From Escherichia coli 042 (GTDB taxonomy: Bacteria; Pseudomonadota; Gammaproteobacteria; Enterobacterales; Enterobacteriaceae), in assembly GCF_000027125.1 (NCBI RefSeq), contig NC_017626.1: a DNA stretch of 64,000 bases; one strand, 5' to 3'. A program made the translations under genes and the position numbers. A model generated the notes under the pieces. The model worked only from the letters and a program-made list of their open reading frames with translations, ran no database searches and was not told the origin of the DNA. The first letter of the stretch is position 1; the number at the start of each line of letters is the position of its first letter. This document shows, one piece after another, positions 41,522 to 50,162 of this stretch.

Positions 41522-43180
41522 ATGAATGCGACTGCAGCCCAGACAAAATCTCTTGAGTGGCTCAATCGCCTGCGTGCGAATCCGAAAATTCCATTGATTG
41601 TTGCCGGTTCCGCGGCAGTGGCGGTCATGGTCGCACTGATCCTGTGGGCGAAAGCCCCCGACTACCGCACATTATTCAGCAATCTTTCCGATCAGGATGG
41701 TGGCGCAATTGTCAGCCAACTGACACAAATGAATATTCCTTACCGCTTCAGCGAAGCCAGCGGCGCTATTGAAGTTCCGGCAGATAAAGTTCACGAACTG
41801 CGTCTGCGCCTGGCACAACAAGGTTTGCCCAAAGGCGGCGCGGTCGGTTTCGAACTGCTTGATCAGGAAAAGTTTGGTATCAGCCAGTTCAGCGAACAGG
41901 TGAATTATCAGCGGGCGCTGGAAGGCGAGCTTTCTCGTACCATCGAAACTATCGGCCCGGTAAAAGGGGCGCGCGTACATCTGGCAATGCCGAAACCCTC
42001 TTTATTCGTCCGTGAACAAAAATCACCTTCTGCATCGGTGACGGTAAATCTGTTACCCGGCCGCGCACTCGATGAAGGGCAAATTAGCGCCATTGTACAT
42101 CTGGTTTCCAGCGCGGTTGCTGGTCTGCCGCCGGGGAACGTCACGCTGGTGGATCAGGGCGGACATCTGTTAACCCAGTCCAATACCAGCGGGCGCGATC
42201 TTAATGACGCTCAGTTGAAATATGCCAGCGATGTCGAAGGCCGTATTCAGCGGCGTATTGAAGCGATCCTGTCGCCTATTGTTGGTAACGGTAATATTCA
42301 CGCCCAGGTCACGGCGCAACTGGACTTCGCCAGTAAAGAACAAACGGAAGAACAGTATCGCCCTAACGGTGATGAATCTCATGCGGCGCTTCGTTCACGC
42401 CAGCTTAATGAGAGCGAGCAAAGCGGTTCCGGTTATCCGGGCGGCGTACCGGGGGCGTTGTCGAATCAACCGGCTCCTGCGAATAACGCGCCAATCAGCA
42501 CGCCTCCGGCAAATCAAAATAACCGCCAGCAGCAGGCGAGCACCACCAGCAATAGTGGGCCGCGTAGCACACAGCGGAATGAAACCAGTAACTACGAAGT
42601 CGATCGCACCATTCGTCATACCAAAATGAACGTGGGCGATGTGCAACGTCTGTCCGTCGCGGTCGTGGTGAATTACAAAACCTTGCCAGATGGCAAACCG
42701 TTGCCTCTCAGCAACGAACAGATGAAGCAAATTGAAGATCTGACCCGCGAGGCGATGGGCTTTTCTGAAAAACGCGGTGACTCGCTCAATGTCGTTAACT
42801 CGCCGTTCAATAGCAGTGACGAAAGCGGCGGAGAACTGCCGTTCTGGCAACAGCAAGCGTTTATCGATCAGTTACTGGCTGCCGGTCGCTGGTTGCTGGT
42901 ACTGCTGGTGGCGTGGCTGCTGTGGCGGAAAGCGGTACGCCCGCAGCTAACACGTCGCGCTGAGGCGATGAAAGCTGTGCAGCAACAGGCGCAGGCCCGC
43001 GAGGAAGTGGAAGATGCGGTGGAAGTCCGCCTGAGCAAAGACGAACAACTACAACAACGGCGCGCTAACCAACGTCTGGGGGCAGAAGTCATGAGCCAGC
43101 GTATCCGTGAAATGTCTGATAACGATCCGCGCGTGGTGGCGCTGGTCATTCGCCAGTGGATAAATAACGATCATGAGTAA
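41522..43180 (+). CDS. fliF: flagellar MS-ring protein FliF
   Basis: 552-aa [45 protein letters not shown]... recognised as FliF. Confidence 0.97.
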
Positions 43181-44168
43181 CCTGACAGGCACCGATAAAA
43201 GCGTCATCCTGCTGATGACCATTGGCGAAGACCGGGCGGCAGAGGTATTCAAGCACCTCTCCCAGCGCGAAGTGCAAACCCTTAGCGCTGCAATGGCGAA
43301 CGTCACGCAGATCTCCAACAAGCAGCTAACCGATGTGCTGGCGGAATTTGAGCAAGAAGCTGAACAGTTTGCCGCACTGAATATCAACGCCAACGATTAT
43401 CTGCGTTCGGTATTGGTCAAAGCTCTGGGTGAAGAACGTGCCGCCAGCCTGCTGGAAGATATTCTCGAAACTCGCGATACCGCCAGCGGTATTGAAACGC
43501 TCAACTTTATGGAGCCGCAAAGCGCCGCCGATCTGATTCGCGATGAGCATCCCCAAATTATCGCCACCATTCTGGTGCATCTGAAGCGCGCCCAGGCCGC
43601 CGATATTCTGGCGTTGTTCGATGAACGTCTGCGCCACGACGTGATGTTGCGTATCGCCACCTTTGGCGGTGTGCAGCCTGCCGCACTGGCGGAGCTGACC
43701 GAAGTACTGAATGGCTTGCTCGACGGTCAGAATCTCAAGCGCAGCAAAATGGGCGGCGTGAGAACGGCAGCCGAAATTATCAACCTAATGAAAACTCAGC
43801 AGGAAGAAGCCGTTATTACCGCCGTGCGTGAATTCGACGGCGAGCTGGCGCAGAAAATCATCGACGAGATGTTCCTGTTCGAGAATCTGGTGGATGTCGA
43901 CGATCGCAGCATTCAGCGTCTGTTGCAGGAAGTGGATTCCGAATCGTTGCTGATCGCGCTGAAAGGGGCCGAGCAGCCACTGCGCGAGAAATTCCTGCGC
44001 AATATGTCGCAGCGTGCCGCCGATATTCTGCGCGACGATCTCGCCAACCGTGGTCCGGTGCGTCTGTCGCAGGTGGAAAACGAACAGAAAGCGATTCTGC
44101 TGATTGTGCGCCGCCTTGCCGAAACTGGCGAGATGGTGATTGGCAGCGGCGAGGATACCTATGTCTGA
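43173..44168 (+). CDS. fliG: flagellar motor switch protein FliG
   Basis: 331-aa [38 protein letters not shown]...; 8-nt overlap with fliF. Confidence 0.97.
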
Positions 44169-44847
44169 TAATCTGCCGTGGAAAACCTGGACGCCGGACG
44201 ATCTCGCGCCACCACAGACGGAGTTTGTGCCACTAGTCGAGCCAGAAGAAACCATCATTGAAGAGGCCGAACCCAGCCTTGAGCAGCAACTGGCGCAACT
44301 GCAAATGCAGGCCCATGAGCAAGGTTATCAGGCGGGGATTGCCGAAGGTCGCCAGCAAGGTCATGAGCAGGGCTATCAGGAAGGACTGGCCCAGGGGCTG
44401 GAACAAGGTCTGGCAGAGGCGAAATCTCAACAAGCGCCAATTCATGCCCGGATGCAGCAACTGGTCAGCGAATTTCAAACTACCCTTGATGCGCTTGATA
44501 GTGTGATTGCTTCGCGCCTGATGCAGATGGCGCTGGAGGCGGCACGTCAGGTGATCGGTCAGACGCCAACGGTGGATAACTCGGCACTGATCAAACAGAT
44601 CCAACAGTTGTTGCAGCAAGAACCGTTATTCAGCGGTAAACCGCAGCTGCGCGTGCACCCCGATGATCTGCAACGTGTTGATGATATGCTCGGCGCAACC
44701 TTAAGTTTGCATGGCTGGCGCTTACGGGGCGATCCCACCCTCCATCCTGGCGGCTGTAAAGTCTCCGCCGATGAAGGCGATCTCGACGCCAGTGTCGCCA
44801 CTCGCTGGCAAGAACTCTGCCGTCTGGCAGCACCAGGAGTGGTGTAA
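44161..44847 (+). CDS. fliH: flagellar export ATPase regulator FliH
   Basis: ORF contains [19 protein letters not shown]...; start trimmed to MSDNLPW (228 aa). Confidence 0.93.
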
Positions 44848-46220
44848 TGACCACGCGCCTGACTCGCTGGCTAACCACGCTGGATAACTTTGAAGCCAAA
44901 ATGGCGCAGTTACCTGCGGTACGTCGCTACGGGCGATTAACCCGCGCTACCGGGCTGGTGCTGGAAGCCACCGGATTACAATTGCCGCTCGGCGCAACCT
45001 GTGTGATTGAGCGCCAGAACGGCAGCGAAACGCACGAAGTAGAAAGTGAAGTCGTTGGCTTTAACGTTCAACGGCTGTTTTTAATGCCGCTGGAGGAAGT
45101 CGAAGGTGTCCTGCCCGGCGCGCGTGTTTATGCCAAAAACATTTCGGCTGAAGGACTGCAAAGCGGCAAGCAGTTGCCGCTCGGTCCGGCGTTATTAGGT
45201 CGTGTTCTGGACGGCAGCGGTAAACCGCTCGATGGCCTCCCCTCCCCCGATACGACGGAAACCGGTGCGCTGATTACCCCGCCATTTAACCCGTTGCAAC
45301 GTACACCGATTGAACATGTGCTGGACACCGGCGTGCGCCCAATCAATGCCCTGCTTACCGTTGGGCGCGGGCAGCGTATGGGGCTGTTTGCCGGGTCTGG
45401 CGTTGGTAAAAGTGTGCTGCTGGGGATGATGGCCCGTTACACCCGCGCCGATGTCATTGTCGTGGGTTTGATTGGTGAACGTGGGCGTGAAGTAAAAGAT
45501 TTTATTGAGAACATCCTCGGTGCCGAAGGGCGTGCACGCTCAGTGGTGATTGCTGCTCCGGCGGATGTTTCTCCGCTCCTGCGAATGCAAGGTGCCGCCT
45601 ATGCCACGCGCATTGCCGAAGATTTTCGCGATCGTGGTCAGCATGTGTTGCTGATTATGGACTCCCTCACCCGCTACGCGATGGCCCAGCGTGAAATTGC
45701 GCTGGCGATTGGCGAACCACCTGCCACTAAAGGTTATCCACCGTCGGTGTTTGCCAAATTACCGGCACTGGTCGAGCGTGCCGGAAATGGCATTAGCGGC
45801 GGAGGCTCGATTACCGCGTTTTATACCGTGCTCACCGAGGGCGATGACCAGCAGGACCCCATTGCCGACTCCGCGCGGGCCATCCTCGACGGTCACATTG
45901 TGCTGTCTCGCCGACTGGCGGAAGCCGGGCACTATCCGGCTATCGATATTGAAGCGTCGATCAGCCGCGCAATGACGGCGTTGATCAGCGAGCAACATTA
46001 TGCGCGAGTGCGCACCTTCAAACAGCTGTTGTCGAGTTTTCAGCGTAACCGCGATCTGGTTAGCGTCGGTGCGTATGCCAAAGGCAGCGATCCGATGCTC
46101 GATAAAGCCATCGCCCTGTGGCCGCAGCTGGAGGGCTATTTGCAACAAGGCATTTTTGAACGCGCGGACTGGGAAGCGTCTCTCCAGGGGCTGGAGCGTA
46201 TTTTCCCGACAGTGTCATAA
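44847..46220 (+). CDS. fliI: flagellum-specific ATP synthase FliI
   Basis: 457-aa ORF with Walker A GSGVGKS and F1-ATPase-like fold. Confidence 0.97.
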
Positions 46221-49384: not shown

Positions 49385-49794
49385 GTGACATGAATAATCC
49401 GGCCGATGACAACAACGGCGCAATGGACGATCTGTGGGCTGAAGCGTTGAGCGAACAAAAATCAACCAGTAGCAAAAGCGCTGCCGACGCGGTGTTCCAG
49501 CAATTTGGCGGTGGTGATGTCAGCGGAACGTTGCAGGATATCGACCTGATTATGGATATTCCGGTCAAGCTGACCGTCGAACTGGGCCGTACGCGGATGA
49601 CCATCAAAGAGCTGTTGCGTCTGACGCAAGGGTCAGTCGTGGCGCTGGACGGTCTGGCGGGCGAACCGCTGGATATTCTGATCAACGGTTATTTAATCGC
49701 CCAAGGCGAAGTTGTCGTAGTCGCTGATAAATATGGCGTGCGGATCACCGATATCATTACTCCGTCTGAGCGGATGCGCCGCCTGAGCCGTTAG
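49381..49794 (+). CDS. fliN: flagellar motor switch protein FliN
   Basis: 137-aa ORF MSDMNNPADDNNGAMDDLWAEALSEQKS... recognised as FliN. Confidence 0.96.
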   Translation: MSDMNNPADDNNGAMDDLWAEALSEQKSTSSKSAADAVFQQFGGGDVSGTLQDIDLIMDIPVKLTVELGRTRMTIKELLRLTQGSVVALDGLAGEPLDILINGYLIAQGEVVVVADKYGVRITDIITPSERMRRLSR

Positions 49795-49796
49795 TG

Positions 49797-50162
49797 ATGA
49801 ATAACCACGCTACTGTGCAATCTTCCGCGCCGGTTTCTGCTGCGCCACTGCTGCAGGTTAGCGGCGCACTCATTGCCATTATTGCCCTGATCCTCGCTGC
49901 TGCCTGGCTGGTAAAACGGCTGGGATTTGCCCCGAAACGCACTGGCGTTAACGGTCTGAAAATTAGCGCCAGTGCTTCGCTGGGCGCGCGTGAACGGGTC
50001 GTGGTGGTCGATGTGGAAGATGCACGGCTGGTGCTCGGCGTTACCGCTGGGCAAATCAATCTGCTGCATAAACTTCCCCCTTCAGCACCAACGGAAGAGA
50101 TACCGCAGACCGATTTTCAGTCGGTCATGAAAAACTTGCTTAAGCGTAGCGGGAGATCCTGA
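49797..50162 (+). CDS. fliO: flagellar biosynthesis protein FliO
   Basis: [45 protein letters not shown]...; start could be either of two adjacent ATGs (49794 or 49797). Confidence 0.9.

Follow-up and report, generated by a model that had tools for sequence, protein, structure and literature searches.

Conserved gene junctions in the fliFGHIJK and fliLMNOPQR operons of Escherichia coli 042 probably couple translation and do not set subunit ratios

The window analysed in this work, a stretch of 64,000 nucleotides (nt) from Escherichia coli 042 (contig NC_017626.1), includes the two flagellar operons fliFGHIJK and fliLMNOPQR, and the subject here is the short overlaps and spacers between their genes. 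In a megablast search, the 11.5 kb around these junctions was matched over its full length in 5,321 of 5,426 complete E. coli genomes, at 95-99% identity, and genomes with a RefSeq annotation accounted for 5,168 full-length matches. The RefSeq annotation of one matching genome was transferred to the window and every gene was then re-translated. By direct translation, the 13 genes from fliF to fliR are all intact, and their lengths, starts and stops are those of the E. coli annotation (Table 1). The gene orders fliF-G-H-I-J-K and fliL-M-N-O-P-Q-R, adjoining a divergent fliE, are those of class-2 flagellar operons, and fliLMNOPQR is recorded as a polycistronic transcript (EcoCyc entry in Table S3 of Huber et al. 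2023). Elsewhere, too, the window is colinear with E. coli chromosomes (tar-cheW-cheA-motBA-flhCD ... fliAZ-fliC-fliDST ... fliE / fliFGHIJK / fliLMNOPQR-rcsA ... dcm-vsr). A scan for promoters and terminators found such sites inside both fli operons at chance level only, and an Rfam scan gave no match inside them. The window is an ordinary segment of the E. coli chromosome, and both flagellar operons are of the standard class-2 form.

Table 1. Genes and gene junctions of the two fli operons in the window. Distances are in nt; negative values are overlaps and positive values are spacers.
Feature	Position	Strand	Description
fliFGHIJK operon	41522..47806	+	Identified by megablast and RefSeq annotation; open reading frames intact
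fliF	41522-43180	+	
fliG	43173-44168	+	
fliH	44161-44847	+	
fliI	44847-46220	+	
fliJ	46239-46682	+	
fliK	46679-47806	+	
fliLMNOPQR operon	47911..51972	+	Identified by megablast and RefSeq annotation; open reading frames intact
fliL	47911-48375	+	
fliM	48380-49384	+	
fliN	49381-49794	+	
fliO	49797-50162	+	Annotated ATG start
fliP	50162-50899	+	
fliQ	50909-51178	+	
fliR	51187-51972	+	
fliF/fliG junction	43173-43180	+	8-nt overlap (-8), ATGAGTAA; no Shine-Dalgarno for fliG
fliG/fliH junction	44151-44168	+	Shine-Dalgarno GAGGA 44151-44155 within fliG; 8-nt overlap (-8), ATGTCTGA 44161-44168
fliH/fliI junction	44835-44849	+	Shine-Dalgarno AGGAG 44835-44839; 1-nt overlap (-1), TAATG 44845-44849
fliI/fliJ junction	46218-46241	+	18-nt spacer (+18) containing AGGAG; no overlap
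fliJ/fliK junction	46667-46682	+	Shine-Dalgarno GAGGA 46667-46671; 4-nt overlap (-4), ATGA 46679-46682
fliK/fliL junction			104-nt spacer (+104); operon boundary
fliL/fliM junction	48373-48382	+	TAA, 4-nt spacer (+4), ATG; no Shine-Dalgarno for fliM
fliM/fliN junction	49367-49384	+	Shine-Dalgarno GAGGA 49367-49371; 4-nt overlap (-4), ATGA 49381-49384
fliN/fliO junction	49792-49799	+	TAGTGATG; +2 to annotated ATG 49797, -1 only from GTG 49794; no Shine-Dalgarno
fliO/fliP junction	50151-50164	+	Shine-Dalgarno GGGAG 50151-50155; 1-nt overlap (-1), TGATG 50160-50164
fliP/fliQ junction	within 50897-51189	+	9-nt spacer (+9); no overlap; outside the range of the first-pass annotation
fliQ/fliR junction	within 50897-51189	+	8-nt spacer (+8); no overlap; outside the range of the first-pass annotation

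A first-pass annotation of the window had described serial start/stop overlaps through both operons and had read them as signatures of translational coupling by which rotor and export components are held at a fixed stoichiometry. When the junction codons were inspected, the individual overlaps mostly proved right: those of 8 nt at fliF/fliG, about 8 nt at fliG/fliH (exactly 8), unspecified length at fliH/fliI (1 nt), 4 nt at fliJ/fliK and at fliM/fliN, and 1-4 nt at fliO/fliP (1 nt) were all recovered. The 1-4-nt overlap given for fliN/fliO depends on the start codon, being 1 nt from GTG 49794 and a 2-nt spacer from the annotated ATG. Thus, six of the 12 fli junctions overlap, or seven if the GTG start of fliO is counted. 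The overlaps are not serial over the whole range described, since re-translation also revealed spacers at fliI/fliJ, fliK/fliL and fliL/fliM, which break the run three times. Longer starts for fliH (TTG 44140) and fliM (TTG 48278) were considered and rejected, as the annotated ATGs match the conserved N-termini and the start positions in relatives. Distances from -8 to +6 nt were found at eight junctions (fliF/fliG, fliG/fliH, fliH/fliI, fliJ/fliK, fliL/fliM, fliM/fliN, fliN/fliO and fliO/fliP); fliP/fliQ and fliQ/fliR are borderline, and fliI/fliJ and fliK/fliL lie outside this range.

None of these distances is new. Those for E. coli K-12 have been tabulated as -8, -8, -1, +18, -4, +104, +4, -4, +2 and -1 (Huber et al. 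2023, Front Microbiol 14:1291523, Table S2), with +9 for fliQ, and the distances in the window are identical to the published list. In the K-12 genome, 707 of 2,987 co-directional pairs fall within -8 to +6 nt (Huber et al. 2023), as compared with 8 of 12 for fli (binomial p = 0.002, approximately), but this baseline mixes operon-internal pairs with unrelated neighbours. When the comparison set was instead the other co-directional pairs of the window lying no more than 50 nt apart (n = 16), overlaps were found in 8 of 16 pairs and in 6 of 11 fli pairs (Fisher p = 1.0), and hence fli overlaps are no commoner than those in other operons. The overlapping pairs in this set are motA/motB (-4), otsB/otsA (-26, 9735-9760), uvrY/uvrC (-4), yecU/yecF (-14, 23955-23968), tcyL/tcyN (-4), fliS/fliT (-1), yedE/yedF (-4) and dcm/vsr (-20, 59193-59212). 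In addition, the convergent genes yedP and dgcQ overlap by 4 nt (54617-54620). The density of overlaps in the fli operons is normal for E. coli operons, and the anatomy of the junctions is already known, catalogued and ordinary.

Related loci were collected by one scan with FliI. It gave 80, each flanked by as much as 10 kb of sequence per side, and they belong to Enterobacterales, Halomonadaceae, Pseudomonas, Gilliamella and Burkholderiales. Homologues were placed by tblastn, and 57-79 loci from about 75 species were scored per junction. Calling of starts anchored on homology was dropped, as it produced implausibly large gaps for the divergent FliK and FliO and for FliH/FliI of Burkholderiales. 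The start was taken instead as the in-frame ATG or GTG nearest the upstream stop, with the non-overlapping junctions serving as internal controls. An overlap was called often at fliF/fliG (95% of loci), fliG/fliH (96%), fliH/fliI (87%, the calls beyond Enterobacterales being uncertain), fliM/fliN (95%) and fliO/fliP (88%), at a middling rate at fliJ/fliK (62%) and fliN/fliO (59%), and seldom at fliI/fliJ (13%), fliL/fliM (2%), fliP/fliQ (2%), fliQ/fliR (7%) and fliK/fliL (0%). The low rates at the control junctions indicate that the nearest-start rule does not manufacture overlaps. As judged by these calls, the junction states are clearly conserved, each junction keeping its own overlap or spacer.

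The conservation concerns the state more than the exact length. The fliF/fliG overlap is retained in 71 of 75 loci, as -8 (Escherichia group), -4 (most other Enterobacterales) or -11 or -14 (Burkholderiales). Of the 76 loci scored at fliG/fliH, 70 have a distance of -8, among them loci of Burkholderiales and Pseudomonas, and TATGTCTRA is nearly invariant there. This agrees with published values for the FliG@FliH pair of orthologous groups (COG pair), which have a median of -8 over 659 genomes (Huber et al. 2023). The fliH/fliI distance is -1 or -4 within Enterobacterales, fliM/fliN is -8 or -4 in 58 of 61 loci, and fliO/fliP is -1 or -4 in 52 of 59. The genes fliN and fliO are adjacent in all species (-4 to +3), the +4/+5 spacer at fliL/fliM is conserved, as is the missing Shine-Dalgarno sequence of fliM, and fliP/fliQ and fliQ/fliR have spacers in most loci.

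It is very improbable, given these data, that the overlaps arose neutrally, through compaction of the genome and drift of stop codons, and have no effect on expression. Such an origin would accord with the equal frequency of overlaps elsewhere in the window and with the overlap of ~15% of co-directional pairs in most prokaryotes (Huber et al. 2019 Nat Commun). It does not accord with the same state being kept at each junction over Enterobacterales, Halomonadaceae, Pseudomonas and Burkholderiales, nor with the constraint on a synonymous site described below, and raw counts point to a turnover of junction states slower than that of neutral intergenic length. Furthermore, the sequence of the fliQ/fliR spacer drifts freely even within Escherichia, whereas the overlaps do not; it is GGGTAGGTCGTACAATGATG in the window, GGGTAATCGATGCAATGTTG in E. 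albertii and GGGTAGTCAGGGCTATGTTG in a third locus (L005, NZ_JAATUR010000007.1). The latter is titled E. coli strain SCPM-O-B-8794, but is only 82-95% identical to the window over the fli genes, about the distance of E. albertii, and probably represents a cryptic Escherichia lineage rather than E. coli proper.

The synonymous site lies at the fliG/fliH junction, where the fliH start is embedded in fliG as TATGTCTGA and the A and T of its ATG are supplied by the penultimate FliG codon, which encodes Tyr. Among the 73 loci with Tyr at that position, 70 use TAT, as compared with the 34 that Tyr codon usage in their flagellar genes would predict. TAT is kept even in loci with a G+C content at third codon positions of 0.85-0.94, and the preceding codon varies freely. 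The excess of TAT is a strong indication, rather than a formal test given the phylogenetic non-independence of the loci, that the site is held to keep the fliH start codon.

The strength of Shine-Dalgarno sequences was expressed as duplex energy with the 3' end of 16S rRNA, and random operon positions served as background (median -2.4, 10th percentile -5.5 kcal/mol). Good Shine-Dalgarno sequences, at -5.9 to -7.4 kcal/mol, are present within the upstream gene for fliH, fliI, fliK, fliN and fliP (Table 1). The starts of fliG (-3.1), fliM (+0.3) and fliO (-1.9 kcal/mol) are at background level, with no Shine-Dalgarno sequence detectable in 43153-43172, 48360-48379 and 49777-49796, respectively. 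Every other fli gene of both operons carries one. Weak independent initiation is thus indicated for fliG, fliM and fliO and not for fliH, fliI, fliK, fliN and fliP. The same pattern is conserved over gamma- and beta-proteobacteria (57-75 related loci), with medians across taxa of -3.1 for fliG, -3.0 for fliM, -1.9 for fliO and -2.4 for fliR, as compared with -6 to -7 for fliH, fliI, fliJ, fliK, fliN, fliP and fliQ. The fraction of fliO genes with a Shine-Dalgarno sequence is 0 in 58 loci, and fliR is without one in most species, the fliR of the window being an exception (-7.2). The starts of fliG, fliM and fliO lie within -8 to +4 of the upstream stop, and those of all four genes, fliR included, within -8 to +9. 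Hence, fliG, fliM, fliO and fliR appear to be without means of independent initiation, and the lack of a Shine-Dalgarno sequence at a start placed beside an upstream stop is the best sequence-level argument for real coupling.

From the anatomy of the junctions, their conservation, the synonymous constraint and the Shine-Dalgarno pattern, we infer that translational coupling is the most likely mechanism at the fli stop/start junctions, and we consider it probable that it occurs there. A ribosome ending the upstream gene would restart at the adjacent start codon, or would open that start for another ribosome, and the expression of neighbours would be tied together. Where a gene has no Shine-Dalgarno sequence, as with fliG, fliM and fliO and, for most species, also fliR, coupling would probably be obligatory. 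It would probably be only contributory for fliH, fliI, fliK, fliN and fliP, for which the sequence in the upstream gene allows independent initiation. A restart efficiency specific to each junction, together with independent initiation, would determine the ratio there, and the overlap itself would not. Distances of -4, -1 and -8 are enriched spacing motifs tied to termination-reinitiation, and coupling is efficient at about -4 to +3 and becomes weaker as genes lie further apart (Huber et al. 2023 Front Microbiol; Brown & Wade 2025 J Bacteriol, review). When native E. coli pairs with a -4 distance were placed in reporters, four of five were coupled despite their Shine-Dalgarno sequences (Huber et al. 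2019 Nat Commun).

The further claim of the first-pass annotation, that the overlaps hold rotor and export components at fixed ratios, is unsupported. The FliH2-FliI complex has a ratio of 2:1, and we know of no complex in which FliG is a partner of FliH, or FliJ of FliK. The C-ring protomer holds the FliF C-terminus, FliG, one FliM and three FliN, and the -4 junction between fliM and fliN thus joins a 1:3 pair. The 5:4:1 core of FliP, FliQ and FliR, a ratio assigned by homology from SctR:S:T (bioRxiv 10.64898/2026.02.19.706803), is encoded with spacers and not with overlaps. Molar ratios were calculated from the absolute protein mass fractions that Mori et al. (2021, Dataset EV9) give for the motile E. 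coli strain NCM3722 (15 samples), with medians of 1.55 for FliG/FliF (range 1.36-1.65), 0.16 for FliH/FliG (0.14-0.18), 2.9 for FliI/FliH (2.7-3.4), 1.5 for FliN/FliM (1.3-1.8) and 0.47 for FliP/FliO. These values are steady-state abundances and not synthesis rates, with an absolute error of ~1.5- to 2-fold; the column header of the dataset was not seen, FliF is a membrane protein, and a later author correction replaced some datasets. Each ratio varies little with the conditions, which is what genes on one mRNA should show, and the ratios spread ~18-fold between overlapping junctions. Only fliF/fliG, at about 1:1, fits the ratio of its partners, FliM:FliN being measured at 1:1.5 and FliH:FliI at 1:2.9. 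Three of the ratios exceed 1 and cannot therefore be produced by reinitiation alone. The ~2.9-fold excess of FliI over FliH (44161-46220) in 15 conditions is the reverse of the ratio in their complex, and means either that FliH is unstable or quantified too low, or that translation of fliI goes well beyond the throughput of the overlap.

Several points weigh against coupling at these junctions. Five overlapping junctions have good Shine-Dalgarno sequences, and the FliI/FliH, FliN/FliM and FliG/FliF ratios go beyond reinitiation. The fifth pair tested in reporters, bioBF, showed independent initiation (Huber et al. 2019 Nat Commun). The conservation of TATGTCTGA could partly stem from constraint at the protein level, on the C-terminal Tyr-Val of FliG and on the N-terminus of FliH, the loci compared share ancestry, and the predicted energies for opening the start regions are not clearly separable from background (within one standard deviation). 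A literature search found no coupling experiment on these fli junctions. The overlaps might accordingly be incidental, with fliH, fliI, fliK, fliN and fliP initiated mainly independently and the overlap kept by constrained terminal codons of both proteins. The strength of the five Shine-Dalgarno sequences as compared with background, their conservation in Enterobacterales, the molar excess of FliI over FliH and of FliN over FliM, and the bioBF precedent would all fit this explanation. We nevertheless regard it as rather unlikely, as it leaves unexplained both the genes without a Shine-Dalgarno sequence and the survival of overlaps through changes in length, and is at odds with the TAT codon fixed even in GC-rich genomes and with the coupling of most tested E. 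coli overlap pairs despite their Shine-Dalgarno sequences. The reading of the overlaps as a signature of translational coupling is thus a reasonable one, resting on spacings, conservation, the synonymous site and the genes without Shine-Dalgarno sequences, and is qualified by the five overlapping genes that have their own.

Coupling could also operate by RNA unfolding rather than by restart of the same ribosome, with a structure that hides the downstream start and is melted by the upstream ribosome, as in sctS/sctT, where there is experimental precedent in homologous injectisome genes. The predicted opening energies of the fliG, fliI, fliO, fliP and fliR starts (11.7-13.9 kcal/mol) are above the median of the coding background (10.6), and the lead gene fliL is open at 5.4, but the opening energies are inside the background scatter, and accessibility of the start regions was uninformative as evidence of occlusion. 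In the window, a predicted hairpin at 51156-51180 (ACCTGCC/GGTAGGT) pairs with the Shine-Dalgarno-like sequence of fliR, but its fold z-score is -0.87, and E. albertii, the other Escherichia and 50+ further loci do not have it. The idea of a stem-loop that is conserved where fliQ ends and hides the fliR Shine-Dalgarno sequence was therefore rejected as a general feature, neither hairpin nor spacer being conserved even within Escherichia. As there is also nothing to unmask in genes without a Shine-Dalgarno sequence, unfolding seems an unlikely basis for the coupling proposed here.

Returning to coupling by termination-reinitiation, we tentatively suggest that the operons may follow a conserved two-tier design, in which fliG, fliM, fliO and fliR would be "obligate followers", translated only by ribosomes handed over from upstream, and the genes with Shine-Dalgarno sequences would be partly coupled. 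The most strongly conserved overlap, fliG/fliH at -8, is held at synonymous sites over gamma- and beta-proteobacteria, yet links proteins that are not known to form a complex. Coupling there would serve something besides stoichiometry. It might, for example, tie the supply of the export apparatus to that of the rotor.

Other features of the window were noted. Rfam matches above the gathering score were obtained for DsrA (53521-53607, - strand), C0465 (1663-1740, +) and RseX (61943-62032, +), together with a cluster of three tRNAs (19955-20254, -) annotated as Leu, Cys and Gly in E. coli strain 135. These RNAs are what one would expect in this part of the E. coli chromosome. The fliC-fliD-amyA-yedE segment (24001-41500) matches a few genomes at 99.9%, and the segments flanking it, the fli operons included, reach at best 98.8-99.0% identity to any of the 5,426 complete E. 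coli genomes. Gene by gene, identity to strain 2017.15.02CC (L001) is lowest for fliN (97.1%) and reaches 100% for fliP and fliQ. The pattern of identity along the window is that of a recombination mosaic. The yedL gene (38901-39381, +) has 481 nt as compared with 480 nt in strain 135, which results in a frameshift and five in-frame stops, and is probably a pseudogene or carries a 1-nt sequencing indel. Between yedL and fliE (39500-40950), the window has an open reading frame of 267 amino acids (39830-40633, -), the reference strain has a frameshifted DUF5503 pseudogene and an integrase fragment, and in another strain emrE adjoins fliE. This interval is a variable, low-GC insertion spot beside the flagellar operons.

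The findings matter little beyond housekeeping, as the distances had been tabulated and the link between overlaps of -4, -1 and -8, coupling and complex subunits had been published. Their useful outcome is a correction, namely that subunit ratios are not fixed by the overlaps, although these are conserved and probably have a coupling effect on translation. Given this conservation and the probable coupling, refactoring or recoding of flagellar operons should keep these junctions, above all at fliG, fliM, fliO and fliR.

As compared with the fli operons of E. coli K-12 (Huber et al. 2023), the window has the same distances and gene order, and its genes have 97-100% nucleotide identity to those of complete E. 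coli genomes. The differences are at strain level only, such as the variable fliQ/fliR spacer, and none is of relevance to the junctions. In termination-reinitiation systems the motifs are enriched among subunits of complexes, whereas several fli pairs are not known to be direct partners and the measured ratios are far from 1:1. The fli junctions share with these systems the -4, -1 and -8 motifs and a Shine-Dalgarno sequence that often lies in the upstream gene (Huber et al. 2019, 2023; Brown & Wade 2025). Huber et al. (2023) mark fliF/fliG as 'not complex', though the FliF C-terminus binds FliG. The sctS/sctT pair of the Salmonella SPI-1 injectisome (bioRxiv 10.64898/2026.02.19.706803), homologous to fliQ/fliR, has the conserved order and a short spacer, and coupling limits the subunit present in one copy. 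There, a stem-loop hides a real Shine-Dalgarno sequence, whereas flagellar fliR is mostly without one and no conserved hairpin was found at fliQ/fliR. The che genes, which belong to the same regulon as fli, have been shown by experiment to be coupled, with the proposed role of correlating the levels of neighbouring products (Lovdok et al. 2009 PLoS Biol). The che pairs differ in having mostly short spacers, and the proposed benefit is noise compensation in signalling and not assembly. In the same regulon, coupling is also reported for motA/motB (Van Way et al. 2000), and this pair has a 4-nt overlap in the window too.

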